Of a stretch of 6,274 nucleotides of DNA, positions 1 to 6,274 are shown in pieces. The DNA comes from a virus (Duplodnaviria > Heunggongvirae > Uroviricota > Caudoviricetes). The notes beneath the pieces were generated by a model, which had not been told where the DNA came from, did not search any database, and worked only from the letters and a program-made list of their open reading frames with translations. Within the stretch, counting starts at the first letter, position 1, and each line of letters starts with the position of its first letter. A program made the position numbers and the translations under genes. Location: positions 1-6,274 of IMG/VR virus record IMGVR_UViG_2617270976_000005, one strand, 5' to 3'.

Positions 1-1
1 T

Positions 2-397
2 GGTCTGAGAAATGATGCCGGAGAATTGATAGGTGTGGCGACAGCCGGTAGACCTGTTGCACGACATTTGGACGATGGATTAACGCTTGAAGTAAATCGC
101 ACATGTACCACAGGAGAACGCAACGCTAACAGCGCGCTTTATGGTGCTGTCTGGCGGGCAGCAAAGGCTATGGGTTATCAACGTTGTATTACGTACACCC
201 AGGCAGATGAATCAGGAGCATCTCTCCGCGCAGCTGGTTTTGTTCGTGTGAAAGAGCTTCCTCCAAGAAAAAGCTGGGCGGAATCAAGCGTCGCCCTGCG
301 GAGTAAACGCGATCCGGTCGGAAACGGTGGTGTTCCTCGTGTGCTCTGGGAAATCAGGAGAATGAGTACCACTGGCATTCGCATCAAAGGAGAGTGA
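2..397 (+). CDS. Hypothetical phage protein, 5'-partial (frame open to window edge; first in-window starts are TTG 26 / GTG 35)
   Basis: Open frame from position 2 to TGA 395-397, protein-like composition, stop 1 nt before the next ATG (399). No family recognised from memory. Confidence 0.5.
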   Translation, partial: GLRNDAGELIGVATAGRPVARHLDDGLTLEVNRTCTTGERNANSALYGAVWRAAKAMGYQRCITYTQADESGASLRAAGFVRVKELPPRKSWAESSVALRSKRDPVGNGGVPRVLWEIRRMSTTGIRIKGE

Positions 398-398
398 T

Positions 399-662
399 AT
401 GGCAACTTTGACAAAAAAAGAACAAGCATGGTTGAGCGAATTACAGGACGTTCTTGATCGCTGTCCATCACCGAAAAAAATTGGTTTTTACACCATTGGC
501 GATAAAAGCATTTACCTGTATGACCTGCGCCGCATGGATGAAATCATGGAGGCTCTTGATAATCGTTCGTCAATGGATTGGTGTGTTGCTGTCCATGATA
601 TGAATGCAGGGTTTGATGAAAAGATTTTGTTCCCCTCATCAGTTGAAAGCACTGCGGGTTAA
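399..662 (+). CDS. Hypothetical protein, 87 aa
   Basis: ATG 399 preceded by AAGGAG (387-392, 6-nt spacing); tightly coupled to the upstream ORF; provided ORF track. Function unknown. Confidence 0.55.
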   Translation: MATLTKKEQAWLSELQDVLDRCPSPKKIGFYTIGDKSIYLYDLRRMDEIMEALDNRSSMDWCVAVHDMNAGFDEKILFPSSVESTAG

Positions 663-672
663 GGAGTAACAC

Positions 673-978
673 ATGACCACTATTACCAAAGAACGTATTG
701 AATTGTTCATTAAAAACCCGCTTGAAAACGGGCTTACCCGTGGTGAACAAATGGAACTGGCACGGATTGCGCTGGCATCGCTGGCAGCAGAGCCAGCCGG
801 TAAATTGCATGAATACAAACCAGTGGGATATCAGCGTCTGGTCGATGAGTTAACCATGCTGGTAAAGCAGTTAACCTGGCAACTGAGGAAAGCGAAGCCA
901 GACTGCAAATTACCGGATAAGGCGATGAGTTATCTGGAGCGGAACGGACTGATAAGCGTGGAGGATATTTTACGATGA
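673..978 (+). CDS. Hypothetical protein, 101 aa
   Basis: ATG 673 preceded by AAGGAG (661-666) overlapping the upstream stop; ORF track. Function unknown. Confidence 0.6.
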   Translation: MTTITKERIELFIKNPLENGLTRGEQMELARIALASLAAEPAGKLHEYKPVGYQRLVDELTMLVKQLTWQLRKAKPDCKLPDKAMSYLERNGLISVEDILR

Positions 979-1058
979 CCTGGCCTGAAGCATTAACAAC
1001 GGTAGGAATTGCGATGGCGGTGGCGCTGGTGGTGTATTCGATTTGCCGCTGGGGATAA
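975..1058 (+). CDS. Putative 27-aa hydrophobic micro-protein (MTWPEALTTVGIAMAVALVVYSICRWG)
   Basis: ATG 975 overlaps the stop of the preceding ORF (ATGA), GGAGG 11 nt upstream, single predicted transmembrane-like segment. Below the ORF-track size cutoff; my own translation. Confidence 0.25.
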   Translation: MTWPEALTTVGIAMAVALVVYSICRWG

Positions 1059-1065
1059 AAACGGT

Positions 1066-1093
1066 TTGCGGGAAAAGGAGAGTTAAGTAGAAT
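1066..1093 (+). promoter_or_regulatory. Candidate sigma70 promoter for the hok transcript (TTGCGG, 16-nt spacer, TAGAAT)
   Basis: Hexamers read by eye at 1066-1071 and 1088-1093; would give a leader of about 170 nt before hok. Not computed. Confidence 0.2.
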
Positions 1094-1269
1094 TGCAGCG
1101 GGTGCTTGAGGCTATCTGTCTCAGGCATGAACACCAAAAGGCAGATAGAGAAAAGCCCCAGTTAACATTACGCGTCCGGCAAGACGCTTAACATTAATCT
1201 GAGGCCATATCTATGCTCTACACACGTAGGTTAGCCTCTTACGTGCCGAAAGGCAAGGAGAAGCAGGCT

Positions 1270-1425
1270 ATGAAGCAGCAAAAGGCGATGCTAATCGCCC
1301 TGATCGTCATCTGTTTAACCGTCATAGTGACGGCACTGGTAACGAGGAAAGACCTCTGCGAGGTACGAATCCGAACCGGCCAGACGGAGGTCGCTGTCTT
1401 CACAGCTTACGAACCTGAGGAGTAA
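1270..1425 (+). CDS. hokD: Hok/Gef-family type I toxin, 51 aa (membrane-depolarising peptide)
   Basis: Translation MKQQKAMLIALIVICLTVIVTALVTRKDLCEVRIRTGQTEVAVFTAYEPEE matches my recollection of HokD/RelF and is near-identical to Gef. AAGGAG 1255-1260, 9 nt before ATG 1270. An in-frame upstream ATG at 1213 would give a 70-aa form. Confidence 0.85.
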   Translation: MKQQKAMLIALIVICLTVIVTALVTRKDLCEVRIRTGQTEVAVFTAYEPEE

Positions 1426-1494
1426 GAGACCGGGCGGGGGAGAAATCCCTCGCCACCTCTGATGTGTCAGGCATCCTCAACGCACCCGCACTTA

Positions 1495-1521
1495 ACCCGC
1501 TTCGGCGGGTTTTTGTTTTTA
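1495..1521 (+). terminator. Rho-independent terminator downstream of hok
   Basis: ACCCGC / UUCG loop / GCGGGT hairpin followed by TTTTTGTTTTT. Confidence 0.7.
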
Positions 1522-1644
1522 TTTTCAACGCGTTTGAAGTTTTAGATGGTGCCGGAATAGAATCAAAAATACTTAAGTAGCGCGCAGGGAGAAGAGGGAT
1601 GGACCCCGAAGGGGAAGAGCTATTTATCTGGAAGGATTCTGAAG

Positions 1645-1818
1645 ATGAAAATCGAAGAATTACGTGAAATTTTTAGTGAAGATGGCCTCTATGCTGTGCG
1701 CGTTGAGAATGGGGGTATTACCTACACAGCGTTAATTCCTGATGATCATGTAGTGTTATCTGTTGAGGCATTCATTGAATACTTGGAAAGACTCGGTTTC
1801 AAGGTAGTTCGGGAATAA
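1645..1818 (+). CDS. Hypothetical small acidic protein, 57 aa (MKIEELREIFSEDGLYAVRVENGG...)
   Basis: ATG 1645 with AAGGA 8 nt upstream; protein-like composition; my own translation. Not in the ORF track (under cutoff). Confidence 0.4.
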   Translation: MKIEELREIFSEDGLYAVRVENGGITYTALIPDDHVVLSVEAFIEYLERLGFKVVRE

Positions 1819-1826
1819 GTTATAAT
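1797..1826 (+). promoter_or_regulatory. Candidate promoter with consensus -10 TATAAT (1821-1826) and weak -35 (TTTCAA/TTCAAG)
   Basis: Perfect TATAAT hexamer directly after the stop of the 57-aa ORF; the -35 is poor. Confidence 0.3.
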
Positions 1827-1877
1827 ACGTGAGCCAGCCTGAACAACTGGCAACCTGCAGCGCCATTGGAGATGACA

Positions 1878-2138
1878 ATGGCGCATAATTTCAAATTTCG
1901 CAATTCTGATTCTGCCTTTGCCAGCAGGCACGGGTGGCGTTCTCACGCATTCAAATATGACTGGTATCAGCACGATCCCTGTACTGAAGAACAGGCCGAA
2001 TGGCTGATTCATAACTACCGCAGACGTGGATATGAGTTTAGGAAAGCCCTCAGTGGCGCTTATTGTTCGCCAGCAGCGACTGAAATTAAGCCTGTCCGGA
2101 CGGCTGGCAATAAAAATTATTGCAGAGCCACCGGATAA
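1878..2138 (+). CDS. Uncertain ORF, 86 aa; 3' part overlaps rusA out of frame
   Basis: ATG 1878 with GGAG 6 nt upstream; the first ~50 codons look protein-like, the remainder is an alternate-frame read of the RusA-like region. May mark a mosaic junction. Confidence 0.25.
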   Translation: MAHNFKFRNSDSAFASRHGWRSHAFKYDWYQHDPCTEEQAEWLIHNYRRRGYEFRKALSGAYCSPAATEIKPVRTAGNKNYCRATG

Positions 2139-2307
2139 GCGTCGTCGTGACCTGGACAATATTCTGAAAGCACCACTGGATGCGCTGACGCACGCGGGGT
2201 TGTTAATGGACGATGAGCAGTTTGATGAAATCAATATTGTACGTGGCCAGCCAGTATCTGGTGGACGGCTGGAGATAAGAATTACAGAGGTGGGTGTGCA
2301 TGAATAA
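2026..2307 (+). CDS. rusA: RusA-family Holliday-junction resolvase homolog, apparently N-terminally truncated (93 aa versus about 120 aa)
   Basis: ...AEPPDKRRRDLDNILKAPLDALTHAGLLMDDEQ...GGRLEIRITEVG aligns with the catalytic acidic region of E. coli RusA (PDRRRRDLDN...DALTKAG...DD...GGRLELTITEMG) as I recall it. In-frame TGA at 2005-2007 blocks upstream extension, and the GTG/ATG start has no clear RBS. Confidence 0.6.
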   Translation: MDMSLGKPSVALIVRQQRLKLSLSGRLAIKIIAEPPDKRRRDLDNILKAPLDALTHAGLLMDDEQFDEINIVRGQPVSGGRLEIRITEVGVHE

Positions 2308-2989
2308 CCAGTATTTACAGTTTGTTCGTGAGCAACTCATGATTGCCACTGCAGATCTCAGTGGGTCGACAAAATGCCAGCTGGAAGCCTGGCAGGAAAA
2401 TGCCCTGTTCGATACAGGGCGTTACAGACGCAAAAAAATTCGTTACCGCGATGAGGTAACCGGAAAAATGATCACGCGGGATAATCCCCCGATCCAGGGT
2501 AAACAATCACTGGCGAAAGGCTCATCAATTGCGCTGGTCAGTCCTGTTGAGTTTGCAACATCATCGTGGCGGCGTGCCGTTCTGGAACTGGAAGAACATC
2601 AGAAGGCGTGGTTGTTGTGGTGTTATGGCGGAAACATTTGCTGGGAGCATCAGATCGCGATAACGCAGTGGGTGTGGAGTGAATTTAAAACTCAGTCCGG
2701 CTCCAGAAAAATTGCAGTGAAAACGCTGGAGCGTGTGAAGAAGTTGATCTGGCTGGCGGCACAGGATGTCAGAGGATGGGTTACCGGGTGTGAGGTCTAC
2801 CAGAGACAGGAGCTTGCCAGACTGTGTGGAGTTAAGCCTGATAACTGGAGCCATAATTATGCGAACTACTGGCGTGAGATGTGCGATATTTTTAAGCGCC
2901 TCGATAGAGAATCCTTGATTTGCTCCGTGAAAATAAGAGCGCAACAAAAAGCGACCTTTTCACGACGAGATATTGCAAAAGTCAATTAA
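2300..2989 (+). CDS. Putative late-gene antiterminator Q-like protein, 229 aa
   Basis: Call rests mainly on synteny: overlaps the rusA stop, AGAGG RBS, followed by a promoter-like element and strong hairpin terminator, then late cargo. No similarity to lambda Q itself; family assignment would need an HMM search. Confidence 0.55.
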   Translation: MNNQYLQFVREQLMIATADLSGSTKCQLEAWQENALFDTGRYRRKKIRYRDEVTGKMITRDNPPIQGKQSLAKGSSIALVSPVEFATSSWRRAVLELEEHQKAWLLWCYGGNICWEHQIAITQWVWSEFKTQSGSRKIAVKTLERVKKLIWLAAQDVRGWVTGCEVYQRQELARLCGVKPDNWSHNYANYWREMCDIFKRLDRESLICSVKIRAQQKATFSRRDIAKVN

Positions 2990-3010
2990 ATCGCGTATGT
3001 TTCGTATAAA
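2973..3010 (+). promoter_or_regulatory. Candidate late promoter (PR'-like): TTGCAA, 17-nt spacer, TATGTT; alternative -10 TATAAA at 3005-3010
   Basis: Hexamers read by eye, overlapping the 3' end of the Q-like gene, about 45 nt upstream of the hairpin terminator. Confidence 0.2.
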
Positions 3011-3050
3011 TCTGATATTTTGCCGATTTTGTACGTGATGGCAAAGTAAG

Positions 3051-3078
3051 AAAAAACCACCGCCAGGTGGTTTTTTTT
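3051..3078 (+). terminator. Rho-independent terminator (tR'-like), possibly bidirectional
   Basis: AAAAAA-CCACC-gcca-GGTGG-TTTTTTTT: short GC stem flanked by an A-tract and an 8-T tract. Confidence 0.7.
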
Positions 3079-3201
3079 ATGTCCGAAAATCGCGTCAGTA
3101 CAGTAAACGCGCTGGTGGTTGCGAATACGGGTCTTTCAGCTTGCTGGCTTTTTCGACAAGAGTTATTGGTATGTCACGTTAACCGGAAAAGGGAAAAAGA
3201 C

Positions 3202-3399
3202 ATGCTAAAACAGCAGGATATGACAGAAACCGCCAGAGTGGTGTTTAATGAATTAAGCGTTACCGACCCGGCGACAGTCAGGGAGATTGCGCAGAATACT
3301 TACCTTTCACGCGAACGCTGCCAGTTAATACTGACCCAGCTGGTTATGGCGGGTCTGGCAGACTATCAGTTCGGTTGTTACAGACGCCTTCAGTCCTGA
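3202..3399 (+). CDS. Small winged-helix-like DNA-binding protein, 65 aa (possibly PapI/FaeA-like)
   Basis: ATG 3202 with AAAGGGA upstream. The TVREIAQNTYLSRERCQLILTQLVMAGL segment has helix-turn-helix spacing that I can align by eye with PapI ([26 protein letters not shown]). The longer ORF-track version (3067) starts inside the terminator T-tract and was not used. Confidence 0.4.
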   Translation: MLKQQDMTETARVVFNELSVTDPATVREIAQNTYLSRERCQLILTQLVMAGLADYQFGCYRRLQS

Positions 3400-3412
3400 A
3401 GGCTTTTTTATT
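3386..3412 (+). terminator. Hairpin with U-tract overlapping the stop codon of the small wHTH ORF
   Basis: GCCTTCAG-tc-CTGAAGGC followed by TTTTTTATTT. Confidence 0.55.
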
Positions 3413-3550
3413 TGTGGTAAATGGGCGGCTGGTGGGTGTTAGGGGCACTCACCAGCCATCTGCTCATGCGTCCGGATCACAAGCAAACCTCAGGCCCATC
3501 TGCTTTGCGCAAAAGCAGAATGAGCCTATCAGAGACAGGCTTAATGATCC

Positions 3551-4600
3551 ATGTTTAACACTGTAAAAATATCCAGTTGTGAGTTGATCAACGCTGACTG
3601 CCTGGAATTTATCCGGTCGTTACCCGAAAATTCTGTTGACCTGATAGTCACGGACCCGCCGTACTTTAAAGTGAAGCCTGAGGGCTGGGATAACCAGTGG
3701 AAGGGCGACGATGATTACCTGAAGTGGCTGGACCAGTGTCTGGCGCAGTTCTGGCGGGTGCTGAAACCTGCCGGAAGTCTTTACCTGTTCTGTGGCCATC
3801 GCCTGGCGTCTGACATTGAAATCATGATGCGTGAACGCTTCAGTGTGCTGAACCATATTATCTGGGCGAAGCCGTCCGGACGCTGGAACGGGTGCAACAA
3901 GGAAAGCCTGAGGGCATATTTCCCCGCCACAGAGCGCATTCTGTTCGCGGAACATTATCAGGGGCCGTATCGCCCGAAAGATGCCGGGTATGAGGCGAAG
4001 GGCAGGGCACTGAAACAGCATGTGATGGCCCCGCTGATTTCTTACTTTCGTGATGCGCGCGCGGCCCTGGGGATAACGGCAAAACAGATTGCAGATGCCA
4101 CAGGAAAGAAAAACATGGTGTCGCACTGGTTCAGTGCCAGTCAGTGGCAGCTACCGAACGAAAGCGATTATCTGAAATTACAGTCGCTGTTTGCCCGGGT
4201 GGCAGAAGAGAAACATCAGCGCGGTGAACTGGAAAAGCCCCACCACCAGCTGGTGGATACGTATACGTCACTGAACCGGCAGTATGTGGAGCTGCAGAGT
4301 GAATATAAGCATCTGCGGCGGTATTTTGGTGTGACGGCGCAGGTGCCGTACACGGATGTGTGGACACATAAACCGGTGCAGTTCTATCCCGGGAAACATC
4401 CGTGCGAAAAACCGGCAGAAATGCTGCAGCAGATAATCAGCGCAAGCAGTCGTCCGGGTGACCTGGTTGCAGATTTTTTTATGGGCTCAGGTTCAACGGT
4501 AAAAGCGGCACTGGCGCTCGGGCGTCGTGCGATTGGCGTTGAACTGGAGACCGGACGTTTTGAGCAGACAGTCAGGGAAGTTCAGGATTTAATCGTTTGA
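3551..4600 (+). CDS. DNA methyltransferase, N6_N4_Mtase family (beta-class amino-MTase, likely N6-adenine), 349 aa; no adjacent endonuclease
   Basis: N-terminal catalytic motif IV LIVTDPPYF (nt 3653-3664) and C-terminal AdoMet motif I DFFMGSGST, in beta-class order, with a central HTH-like insert (ITAKQIADATGKKNMVSHWF). An in-frame TGA at 3545-3547 fixes the start at ATG 3551; the RBS is weak. Confidence 0.9.
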   Translation: MFNTVKISSCELINADCLEFIRSLPENSVDLIVTDPPYFKVKPEGWDNQWKGDDDYLKWLDQCLAQFWRVLKPAGSLYLFCGHRLASDIEIMMRERFSVLNHIIWAKPSGRWNGCNKESLRAYFPATERILFAEHYQGPYRPKDAGYEAKGRALKQHVMAPLISYFRDARAALGITAKQIADATGKKNMVSHWFSASQWQLPNESDYLKLQSLFARVAEEKHQRGELEKPHHQLVDTYTSLNRQYVELQSEYKHLRRYFGVTAQVPYTDVWTHKPVQFYPGKHPCEKPAEMLQQIISASSRPGDLVADFFMGSGSTVKAALALGRRAIGVELETGRFEQTVREVQDLIV

Positions 4601-4611
4601 AACGGATGAGA

Positions 4612-4641
4612 TTGCAGAATTAATTACGCACCATTATTATT
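4612..4641 (+). promoter_or_regulatory. Candidate promoter for the tRNA cluster (TTGCAG, 17-nt spacer, TATTAT)
   Basis: Hexamers at 4612-4617 and 4635-4640 place a start site about 2 nt before the first tRNA. Confidence 0.35.
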
Positions 4642-4649
4642 CTGCTTCC

Positions 4650-4725
4650 GGCCCTTTAGCTCAGTGGTGAGAGCGAGCGACTCATAATCGCCAGGTCGCT
4701 GGTTCAAATCCAGCAAGGGCCACCA
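4650..4725 (+). tRNA. tRNA with CAU anticodon, most likely tRNA-Ile2 (lysidine type, ileX/ileZ-like); tRNA-Met not excluded
   Basis: Manual cloverleaf: acceptor GGCCCTT/AAGGGCC, D-arm GCTC/GAGC, anticodon loop CUCAUAA, T-loop TTCAAAT, encoded CCA. Close to E. coli ileX as I recall it. Confidence 0.85.
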
Positions 4726-4732
4726 TCACAAA

Positions 4733-4812
4733 CCGCCATTAGCTTATCAGGAAGAGCAGACGACACGATAACAGGGTTGTTGGTGCGGGGGCGGGTCCCC
4801 GATGGCGGTCCA
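4733..4812 (+). pseudogene. Degenerate tRNA-like relic between the two tRNAs
   Basis: Perfect 7-bp acceptor stem CCGCCAT/ATGGCGG, then the same TA + GCT(T) start of the D-arm as the flanking tRNAs, a discriminator and CCA; but no foldable anticodon arm and a non-canonical 6-nt T-loop (GCGGGT). Confidence 0.3.
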
Positions 4813-4825
4813 TTATCGGTATTCA

Positions 4826-4902
4826 GCGTTGTTAGCTCAGCCGGACAGAGCAATTGCCTTCTAAGCAATCGGTCACTGGTTCGAATCCAGTACAGCGCGC
4901 CA
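4826..4902 (+). tRNA. tRNA-Arg, anticodon UCU (reads AGA, and AGG by wobble)
   Basis: Manual cloverleaf: acceptor GCGTTGT/ACAGCGC (one G-U pair), D-arm GCTC/GAGC, anticodon stem ATTGC/GCAAT with loop CUUCUAA, T-loop TTCGAAT, encoded CCA. Confidence 0.9.
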
Positions 4903-5009
4903 TATTCATTCTTCCAGATTCCTTTCGGCAGAGCCTTATACTGAAATATACCTGGCTCAGGATATTGTTGAAAATATTATATGTTTGTCAAAAATAAAAG
5001 TTCTGTTAA

Positions 5010-5366
5010 GTGTTGATTGAGTGTTTGTTATACGGTCTAATGGTTTTTTCAGCATTAAATATTTATCATTCATATGGTGTGGGTAGAGTGAATATTGATG
5101 AGGCGTCGGGGTGTTTCATCCTTAGGCAGCGTATTGATATAGTCAATGCAGAACGAGCAAAGGCCTTCAGCCGTTTGACAGTTTTGTTCTGTACTCCTGA
5201 TCGTCTTTCGGGAAGAGACGTTATTATTCTGAATAGTGATGCTATACAGAGGGTTTGCGATGAGTTCATGGTGGCTAATTCAGAATTATTTGCTCTTGTT
5301 CAGGAGTACAACAGAATAGCCAGGACCTGTGGTATGGATGAACTTCGGATTACTCATCTGGGGTAG
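5010..5366 (+). CDS. Hypothetical protein in an AT-rich cargo region, 108-118 aa depending on start (GTG 5010 or ATG 5040)
   Basis: ORF track. Composition is more protein-like than the overlapping antisense frame, but neither start has a convincing RBS. No family recognised. Confidence 0.3.
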   Translation: MLIECLLYGLMVFSALNIYHSYGVGRVNIDEASGCFILRQRIDIVNAERAKAFSRLTVLFCTPDRLSGRDVIILNSDAIQRVCDEFMVANSELFALVQEYNRIARTCGMDELRITHLG

Positions 5367-5446
5367 ATACATATCTGGATTATCACCGGTTACGGTAAAA
5401 AGTGATTGCTTACTGTTTTTGTGAATGGCATTGCAGCAGCCGGATA

Positions 5447-5533
5447 ATGTCAGTGCTGGCTGACGGTGTGCTGGTGGCGGGTGTGGTGGTTGCTGCTTTC
5501 CCGTTGCTGAAAAAGAAAACGCTAGACTGTTAG
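5447..5533 (+). CDS. Speculative 28-aa hydrophobic peptide (MSVLADGVLVAGVVVAAFPLLKKKTLDC)
   Basis: My own translation; single hydrophobic stretch with C-terminal KKK. Weak RBS; an in-frame GTG at 5402 would give 44 aa. May be a chance ORF in GT-rich sequence. Confidence 0.15.
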   Translation: MSVLADGVLVAGVVVAAFPLLKKKTLDC

Positions 5534-5757
5534 CCGGGTATCAGTTAGCGGGAGAAATTTTTAAATACTTCACAATTCAGGCGGTTGACTGTTGTCTGGT
5601 TTGCGGGGAGTTTGTTAAAAGAAACTGGCATGGTGAATCCCCCTGTGCGGAGGGGCAATCAGCGAGTAGGTATATGGGATAATCGCGGATTCAGGTGCTG
5701 GTACTGAATTCACCGGGAGGCACCCGGCACCATGCAATGGCACATAGCGCCACTCTC

Positions 5758-5788
5758 CAGCCCCTCTCCGGAGGGGCTGTTTATATTG
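5758..5788 (+). terminator. Strong rho-independent terminator
   Basis: Perfect 9-bp GC-rich stem CAGCCCCTC / tccg / GAGGGGCTG followed by TTTATATTGATTTT. Confidence 0.6.
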
Positions 5789-5810
5789 ATTTTGTCAGAT
5801 GTGAGTAAAC

Positions 5811-5844
5811 TCCTTATGGACTTTGTTGTTTTAGTCCATAAGGA
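5811..5844. repeat. Perfect 12-bp inverted repeat with 10-nt spacer (TCCTTATGGACT-n10-AGTCCATAAGGA)
   Basis: Read directly from the sequence; no U-tract follows on either strand, so more likely an operator or RNA structure than a terminator. Confidence 0.6.
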
Positions 5845-5896
5845 CATATTTGCAGAGTGCAACGGTTATTAAAGCATTCATTCAATACGTTATCTG

Positions 5897-6274
5897 GGTG
5901 ATGCTGCCAACTTACTGATTTAGTGTATGATGGTGTTTTTGAGGTGCTCCAGTGGCTTCTGTTTCTATCAGCTGTCCCTCCTGTTCAGCTACTGACGGGG
6001 TGGTGCGTAACGGCAAAAGCACCGCCGGACATCAGCGCTATCTCTGCTCTCACTGCCGTAAAACATGGCAACTGCAGTTCACTTACACCGCTTCTCAACC
6101 CGGTACGCACCAGAAAATCATTGATATGGCCATGAATGGCGTTGGATGCCGGGCAACAGCCCGCATTATGGGCGTTGGCCTCAACACGATTTTACGTCAC
6201 TTAAAAAACTCAGGCCGCAGTCGGTAACCTCGCGCATACAGCCGGGCAGTGACGTCATCGTCTGCGCGGAAATG
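5897..6274 (+). mobile_element. IS1 insertion sequence, left end and first 378 bp (continues past the window)
   Basis: Left terminal inverted repeat GGTGATGCTGCCAACTTACTGAT at 5897-5919, and insA at the expected offset (IS1 nt 56). Confidence 0.95.
5952..6227 (+). CDS. insA: IS1 InsA (transposition repressor / N-terminal part of the InsAB' transposase), 91 aa
   Basis: Translation [43 protein letters not shown]...LKNSGRSR matches IS1 InsA as I recall it. Confidence 0.95.

Follow-up and report, generated by a model that had tools for sequence, protein, structure and literature searches.

The hok/sok family is a textbook system in which a small membrane toxin is held in check by an antisense RNA. 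In plasmid R1, the tac element at the 5' end of the hok mRNA can pair in three alternative ways, the protective role of a 3' stem-loop is likewise known from R1 work, and mutational data back the R1 mechanism (PMC9841398). In the Stx phages, the HokW toxin localises to the inner membrane and causes growth arrest, and the sokW RNA, which was seen by northern blot and is transcribed from its own promoter, neutralises HokW partly via RNase III and Hfq; mutations around the sokW -10 element exposed toxicity (PMC8621323). Following mitomycin C treatment, sokW vanishes and HokW is produced in a RecA-dependent manner, preceding endolysin by about 1 h, and deletion of hokW-sokW from phage Sp5 postponed growth arrest by about 40 min and halved phage release (PMC8621323). 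In relatives, namely hokW-sokW (PMC8621323) and R1 (PMC9841398), Hok toxicity, its neutralisation through Sok, and mRNA processing at the 3' end have been demonstrated. A further member of the family, HokD, served as a previously characterised toxic control in a toxicity assay (bioRxiv 10.1101/2025.08.07.668861).

The locus considered here occupies positions 1066-1521 of a phage-derived stretch of 6,274 nucleotides (hereafter the window; positions 1 to 6,274 of IMG/VR record IMGVR_UViG_2617270976_000005). It is very probably a complete and canonical type I toxin-antitoxin system of the hok/mok/sok kind, an allele of hokD with an intact leader carried as cargo by a lambdoid and probably defective prophage in its nin-to-Q region. 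It belongs to the hokD/hokW type, which many lambdoid prophages of E. coli have in their early region, and by sequence is closely related to hokW-sokW of Stx phages. Such a system is already known and very common, with nothing new about it, and its importance extends little beyond correct annotation. In such loci RefSeq annotates only the toxin ORF, leaving mok, Sok, and the RNA elements without annotation. The question that the locus touches is the purpose of prophage-borne hok genes, be it addiction, lysis timing, or exclusion, and sequence alone is insufficient to answer it.

The original prediction of a complete-looking hok type I locus is borne out by Pfam, by Rfam family RF01794, and by the presence in the window of all elements of the R1 hok mRNA, namely tac, its metastable partner, ucb, the mok Shine-Dalgarno sequence (SD), dcb, the protective 3' stem-loop, fbi, and the terminator (Table 1). 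RF01794 ('sok') matches positions 1100-1275 on the + strand over the full model (1-157), scoring 117.1 bits where the gathering score is 59. Since the model runs along the hok sense strand, what the match identifies is the hok mRNA leader, including the complement of Sok, and not Sok expression. Other Rfam hits in the window scored below threshold and were dismissed: one to isrK at 1434-1515 (24.9 bits, with 50 needed), and further ones around 2996-3120 to isrK, Phe_leader, and STnc370.

Table 1. Features of the hok/mok/sok locus, in order of window position.
Feature	Position	Strand	Description and basis
Presumed hok promoter	1066-1093	+	-35 TTGCGG (1066-1071), 16-nt spacer, -10 TAGAAT (1088-1093); putative
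Full-length mok-hok mRNA, about 417 nt	1100-1516	+	5' end from RF01794 alignment, 3' end from terminator
tac, GGGUGCUUGAGG	1100-1111	+	Three mutually exclusive partners: fbi, ucb, 1118-1128
Upper part of 5' tac hairpin, 10 bp	1112-1148	+	1112-1121 pairs with 1139-1148
Metastable-hairpin partner of tac	1118-1128	+	Nascent-transcript fold
Predicted Sok antisense RNA, 71 nt	1221→1151	-	Coordinates carried over by alignment from annotated sokW of 933W
ucb (anti-SD of mok)	1153-1161	+	Partner of mok SD in closed form, of tac in open form
mok SD, GAGG	1201-1204	+	8 nt 5' of ATG at 1213
mok reading frame, 70 codons	1213-1425	+	In frame with hok, common stop codon
Predicted Sok promoter	1229-1257	-	-35 TTGCCT (1252-1257), 17-nt spacer, -10 TAACCT (1229-1234); sequence and 933W homology
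dcb, GCCUC	1234-1238	+	Pairs with 1201-1205 (GAGGC) in open form; Rfam consensus, local fold of 1199-1245
hok SD, AAGGAG	1256-1261	+	Sequence; 8 nt 5' of hok ATG
hok toxin gene, 51 aa	1270-1425	+	Pfam HOK_GEF, PHROG 251, identity to K-12 HokD
GC-rich 9-bp stem-loop	1433-1454	+	Expected protective 3' end of processed (truncated) hok mRNA
fbi, CCUCAACGCACCC	1475-1487	+	Complementary to tac, one bulged C
Intrinsic terminator	1494-1521	+	Terminator scan; 7-bp stem, UUCG loop, U run

The toxin gene had been predicted as a Hok/Gef gene with a ribosome-binding site, and both the gene and its SD are confirmed at the positions given in Table 1. The product matches Pfam HOK_GEF (PF01848; E=2.9e-23, 81.6 bits, cutoff 22) and PHROG 251, 'MokW-like host killing' (E=2.8e-33), and is 100% identical at the protein level to HokD/RelF of E. 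coli K-12. The NCBIfam Hok models also match, yet fall under their curated cutoffs (48.5 bits vs 73). The codon for Tyr47 (1408-1410) lies inside an invariant UACGAA, and the hok SD overlaps the -35 hexamer of the predicted Sok promoter.

Upstream of hok, an in-frame ATG had been noted that opens a frame of 70 residues, the size of mok, along with a doubt as to whether canonical mok is in frame with hok at all. The frame is confirmed, and ends at the hok stop codon. The doubt was apt for R1, where the mok ATG occupies 116-118 and the hok ATG 174-176, a distance of 58 nt, and mok is consequently out of frame (PMC9841398). In the window the two ATGs are 57 nt apart, and mok is therefore in frame with hok, as it is in K-12 mokC/hokC and 933W mokW/hokW, where the ATGs are also separated by 57 nt and each ORF pair ends at a common stop codon. 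Because this geometry equals that of the window, the 70-residue in-frame ORF is the normal mok of the subfamily. The frame of mok relative to hok is not conserved across the family: of 37 aligned loci (described below), 26 space the two ATGs by 57 nt, 8 by 58 nt, and 2 by 56 nt, and one has no mok ATG. This variability agrees with the published view that it is translation of mok that matters, and not its product. The GAGG that serves as the mok SD is invariant in the 37 loci, and is sequestered by ucb in the minimum free energy (MFE) fold of the full-length mRNA.

An antisense Sok RNA had also been anticipated, opposite positions 1180-1260. Such an RNA is indeed predicted, by the mapping of 933W sokW onto the window, with the difference that it would run from 1221 to 1151. 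The predicted Sok and the mok start codon overlap by 9 nt, an arrangement that is the same as the K-12 sokC/mokC layout, and the fold of this RNA (-28.6 kcal/mol, z = -5.4) consists of a long hairpin between a 15-nt single-stranded 5' tail and a U tail. The minus-strand promoter that the original prediction had proposed as a check was missed by a strict consensus scan, and is recognised here by -35 and -10 hexamers that are identical to those of 933W sokW; the putative Sok start is 7 nt downstream of the -10. The strict sigma-70 scan of the window found neither the hok nor the Sok promoter, since the former matches 8/12 consensus positions, where the threshold was 9/12, and the latter 7/12. 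The assignment of both relies on where they lie and on their homology to 933W and R1; the presumed hok promoter ends 6 nt 5' of position 1 of the RF01794 model.

The predicted leader of ~170 nt proved accurate, being 170 nt long provided that the mRNA starts at 1100, which corresponds to RF01794 position 1. The MFE fold of the presumed full-length transcript (1100-1516; -170.3 kcal/mol, z = -6.4) has its 5' and 3' ends paired, with tac and fbi forming 12 bp around one bulge (duplex energy of -21.5 kcal/mol). In the same fold, ucb positions 1155-1161 (GCC.CAG) pair with 1199-1205 (CUG.GGC), burying the mok SD. A fold of the first 31 nt (1100-1130) instead yields the hairpin of tac with 1118-1128, at -16.9 kcal/mol, and tac pairs with ucb in a fold of the 61-nt 5' region and in the Rfam consensus. 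At the other end, the UUCG-loop terminator that had been predicted to close the locus was found by a terminator scan, with stem arms AACCCGC and GCGGGUU on either side of the loop (1494-1511), followed by a U run.

Within the leader, a 9-bp stem had been pointed out in which CUAUCUGUC (1112-1120) pairs with GGCAGAUAG (1140-1148). The stem is real, contains a single wobble (U1119·G1141), and is lengthened to 10 bp by U1121-A1139. On its own it is not above chance, as a stem of at least 9 bp with no more than one G·U pair occurs in 17% of 500 dinucleotide shuffles of 1066-1521; it is the conservation over 37 loci (93% of cells paired, with 3 pairs altered on both sides) and the Rfam leader match that argue for its reality. 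It is not the fold-back element: the stem forms the top of the 5' tac hairpin, whose base is formed by tac and ucb, and the real fold-back element, fbi, had been overlooked.

For RNAs ending at 1470 or 1458, the presumed 3' ends of processed mRNA, the published open conformation is not the MFE. When forced, it lies 5.5 kcal/mol above the MFE for the guessed processed end at 1458, and because of this cost the energy model fails to reproduce the refolding. Support for the ucb/dcb refolding would thus come from homology and conservation, and not from the energy model.

Conservation was examined in an alignment of 37 loci. Scanning a single genome for each species gave 53 loci, of which 34 intact and distinct ones were aligned with the window, 933W, and a Rac record, the set covering Escherichia, Kluyvera, Citrobacter, Pseudocitrobacter, Photorhabdus, and Pantoea. 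Across this alignment, the closed, full-length structure has 92.0% of its cells paired (44-51% when the partner is slid), the open, truncated structure 96.9% (45-56%), and the metastable hairpin 96.6% (29-52%), figures that are inflated relative to the slid controls because the window itself supplied the sequence from which the structures were derived, and because the sequences are mutually related. The 3' stem-loop is 97.4% paired, with 2 pairs altered on both sides. The helices formed by tac with ucb (99.6% paired) and by the mok SD with dcb (100% paired) are invariant, and so give no covariation signal.

Changes on both sides of a pair were found at 12 pairs of the closed structure and at 3 of the metastable hairpin. 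The fourth position of tac is U in Escherichia and C in Photorhabdus, and both of its partners go from A to G: the pair with fbi is U-A (24 loci) or C-G (11 loci), and that with the metastable partner (column 28) is U-A (24 loci) or C-G (12 loci). In sequence terms, these coupled changes are the covariation expected of a multi-state switch. Similarly, the GAGG/CCUC pairing of tac with fbi becomes GAGA/UCUC in Kluyvera and Photorhabdus. The column counts understate the pairing of tac with fbi, as MAFFT misregisters the 5' half of fbi in Photorhabdus, which is without the bulged C; the per-locus tac and fbi strings display this pairing directly. Compensatory changes across genera imply that selection acts on the RNA structures.

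The locus is widespread. A megablast search found the region in 4939 of 5426 complete E. coli genomes, and at least 80% of the query was covered in 3927 of them, with a median of two places per genome and hokD as the annotation. Positions 1066-1513 are base-for-base those of the locus annotated hokD (RefSeq) in E. coli PCN033, and 102 phage records match, including 933W and VT2-Sakai at 93.8% identity. When the whole window was used as query, coverage above 75% was reached in no complete E. coli genome, and one IMG/VR locus (L085) is identical to the window over 1-4646. The flanking ORFs encode a Mom-like/XF1762-family protein, members of PHROG 1714 and PHROG 660, RusA, antiterminator Q (PF06323), and an N6 methylase, and two tRNAs also lie among the phage genes of the window. 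The earlier placement of the locus in a phage early region is upheld by these PHROG phage families, RusA, and Q, which put it in the nin-to-Q delayed-early region. Among 80 IMG/VR loci with an identical toxin, the tac leader is present in 77, and relE lies upstream in 2, the arrangement of the K-12 Qin prophage. DUF968, RusA, or Q is found downstream on the same strand in 59 of the 80, and on the opposite strand in none. The prophage to which the window belongs has a truncated rusA, is missing the DUF968 gene, and contains IS1; from these sequence features it looks defective, in which case an induction-linked role of the locus may no longer apply.

For this locus we infer the mRNA ends, Sok expression, 3' processing, and toxicity, and the canonical molecular mechanism can be carried over from plasmid R1 by homology with high confidence, as the required sequence elements are all present. 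A weak promoter would give rise to a stable mRNA of ~417 nt, ending at about 1516. During its synthesis, tac would be kept in the metastable hairpin with 1118-1128, and in the finished RNA tac would pair with fbi while ucb masks the mok SD, a closed form that would neither be translated nor bind Sok. Slow 3' trimming towards the 1433-1454 stem-loop would then take away fbi, upon which tac and ucb would pair, the mok SD would pair with dcb in a stem that keeps it open to ribosomes, and the Sok target would be exposed. As long as it is transcribed, the unstable 71-nt Sok would pair over the mok start, and the duplex would be destroyed. Once Sok transcription is off, mok would be translated in frame with hok, opening the hok SD for synthesis of the 51-residue membrane toxin. 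Most likely, by analogy with hokW-sokW, the locus would stay silent in lysogeny and fire on loss of Sok, for example upon prophage induction or loss of the element. The Hok so produced would damage the inner membrane, adding to lysis or to post-segregational killing. Counting against this explanation, the best available, chromosomal hokA, hokB, and hokC reportedly do not mediate post-segregational killing (bioRxiv 10.1101/2025.08.07.668861).

What such firing would achieve can be read in more than one way. One possibility, which we hold tentatively, is that the locus helps the phage: loss of Sok on induction would lead to early membrane damage by Hok, earlier lysis, and greater phage release, with stabilisation of the prophage being incidental. 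The loss of sokW, the timing of HokW, and the deletion phenotype in Sp5, the sole direct data on a close relative, all point this way (PMC8621323), as does the co-orientation of hok with the pR-to-Q transcription unit, seen here and in 59/59 informative IMG/VR loci. Those phenotypes nonetheless come from a single study, with a two-fold effect, of a phage that has the locus at a different genome position, and the prophage at hand, without part of rusA and without the DUF968 gene, may not be inducible.

A more specific version, which we regard as quite unlikely, is that the nin position and the fixed orientation upstream of DUF968-RusA-Q may wire Hok to induction as a timed lysis helper. Crossing the locus in the sense orientation, N-antiterminated transcription from pR would run into the convergent Sok promoter and occlude it, and such read-through would deplete Sok and turn Hok on. 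If true, pR read-through would explain the otherwise unexplained RecA-dependent loss of sokW in Sp5. In its own phage, hokW is located elsewhere, a counterpoint to this idea.

Alternatively, the locus could serve in defence, with a lytic phage stopping host transcription, Sok being depleted, and Hok killing the cell in an abortive infection or exclusion response. This is unlikely, even though hok is about four-fold enriched in prophages in a recent survey (bioRxiv 10.1101/2025.08.07.668861), and even though, in the account given in PMC8621323, R1 hok/sok at high copy number cut the plating efficiency of T4 by 42% and made plaques smaller. As related there, the T4 effect is weak and requires high copy number, and slow 3' processing of hok mRNA would seem to suit a fast lytic cycle poorly. 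Furthermore, the same survey saw no enrichment of hok near defence systems (bioRxiv 10.1101/2025.08.07.668861), and Hok, Mok, and a 27-residue upstream ORF gave no PADLOC match at E<=0.01. Help in lysis would therefore appear to be better supported than defence as the role of the window locus.

Lastly, that the locus is a silent relic, with intact sequence and a Hok that is never made natively, a state that has been suggested for the hok loci on the E. coli K-12 chromosome, most of which are inactivated by IS elements or rearrangement (PMC12214031), is very unlikely, for while the surrounding prophage has deletions and IS1, and the hok and Sok promoters are both weak consensus matches, every regulatory element is kept here (K-12 hokD is without anything upstream of window 1256), those elements show compensatory changes across genera, the leader is kept in 77/80 IMG/VR loci with an identical toxin, and the 94%-identical hokW-sokW is active at its native position (PMC8621323).

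Of the systems compared, hokW-mokW-sokW of 933W and Sp5 (AF125520) shares 93.8% nucleotide identity with the window over 1066-1497, and its HokW is 92% identical to the window Hok. The likeness extends to mokW, which is also a 70-residue frame that shares its stop codon with the toxin gene and whose start is overlapped by sokW for 9 nt, and to tac, ucb, dcb, fbi, and the Sok promoter hexamers, which are the same in both. The two loci differ in several bases of the Sok 5' tail and its target, around 1205-1225, and at the C-terminus of Hok. Moreover, the UUCG terminator of the window is absent from 933W, where hokW lies near the right end of the genome and not in a nin-to-Q region.

With hok/mok/sok of plasmid R1, the locus shares the order of elements, the 70-codon mok, the pairing of the mRNA ends through tac and fbi, the metastable hairpin, and the complementarities for a ucb/dcb switch (PMC9841398). 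The mok SD is at about +102-105 in the window and about +105 in R1, and the mok ATG at +114 and +116, respectively, with mok in frame in the window (57 nt between ATGs) and out of frame in R1 (58 nt). As for the toxins, R1 Hok is no more than 44% identical to HokW, the 92% identical relative of the window Hok (PMC8621323). Whereas R1 is a plasmid, the window is part of a prophage, and post-segregational killing has been shown, among the systems compared, for R1 only. Chromosomal hokC (gef)/mokC/sokC of E. coli has mokC in frame and ending at a common stop codon, sokC overlapping the mokC start by 9 nt, a HokC 82% identical to the window Hok, and the same tac/fbi logic. Its Sok hairpin region is shorter than that of the window, leaving an alignment gap of 18-20 nt, and it is a chromosomal locus, not a prophage one, the K-12 copy of which adjoins IS186.

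A further comparison is with hokD (relF) of the K-12 Qin prophage, the DNA of which is 95% identical to window 1256-1712, a segment that runs from the hok SD and ORF through the 3' stem-loop, fbi, and the terminator into the downstream flank. Homology starts exactly at 1256; immediately upstream K-12 has relBE, with relE ending 71 nt before hokD, and tac, ucb, Sok, the mok start, and dcb, all of which the window retains, are absent. Since K-12 hokD is homologous only from 1256 onward, the window shows the intact, ancestral-type leader that K-12 lost, and cleanly exemplifies hokD in its intact form, the K-12 copy having given up its leader to relBE.

An unannotated hydrophobic ORF of 27 codons lies upstream of the hok/mok/sok type I toxin-antitoxin module; the preceding gene ends within the start codon of this ORF (ATGA). 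Position 975 of the window, where this ORF begins, is also the exact start of homology to the Stx2 phage 933W, to E. coli PCN033 and to strain 131, and sequence comparison indicates that the small ORF travels with the hok module. Its frame and length are preserved in six copies, in which synonymous and non-synonymous changes are mixed. Searches of PHROGs, PADLOC and NCBIfam returned no match for this ORF.

Features in and around the hok locus and downstream of it (window coordinates)
Feature	Position	Strand	Remarks
27-codon ORF	975-1058	+	MTWPEALTTVGIAMAVALVVYSICRWG
UACGAA	1408-1413	+	contains Hok Tyr47 codon UAC
rusA ORF	2026-2307		GTG start, 93 aa
tRNA, anticodon CAT	4650-4725	+	ARAGORN: Met
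tRNA-Arg, anticodon TCT	4826-4902	+	
STnc100 sRNA family match	5599-5788	+	Rfam, 132 bits vs gathering score 47
IS1 end	5897-6274		insA ORF at 5952-6227

The prophage that carries the module looks defective at 1819-2307. Related prophages have a DUF968 gene separating hokD from rusA, which is missing here, and the rusA ORF lacks roughly the first 33 codons relative to a 126-aa homologue. Further downstream the prophage region is cut off by the IS1 end, and from 5896-5897 onward the window DNA matches unrelated positions in other genomes. In IMG/VR, positions 4732-9377 of another contig (L085, IMGVR_UViG_2617270976_000002) are 100% identical to window 1-4646; in L108, which belongs to the same UViG set, hok also starts at 1270, yet the identity is just 99.4%.

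Both phage-borne tRNAs lie downstream of Q and the methylase, and the STnc100 match is located downstream of the tRNAs. Whereas ARAGORN reads the CAT tRNA as Met, its counterpart in related prophages is labelled tRNA-Ile in RefSeq.

Among the compared loci, one from a genome whose record says E. coli (L007, 2816-3266) has a mutated tac, the 5' element of the hok mRNA (…GCATGTGGCTATGTGCC…), and in a Shigella flexneri copy (L049, 3001-3150) Hok is frameshifted. Both are decayed relatives; they illustrate the appearance of a hok relic, with which the window copy contrasts.

The UACGAA motif is invariant in all aligned hok loci (37/37). Its Tyr47 codon aligns with HokB position 46, and TadA A-to-I editing gives HokC, HokD and HokE a cysteine at the site matching that position; for K-12 hokD, an editing level of 6% is reported (PMC12214031).
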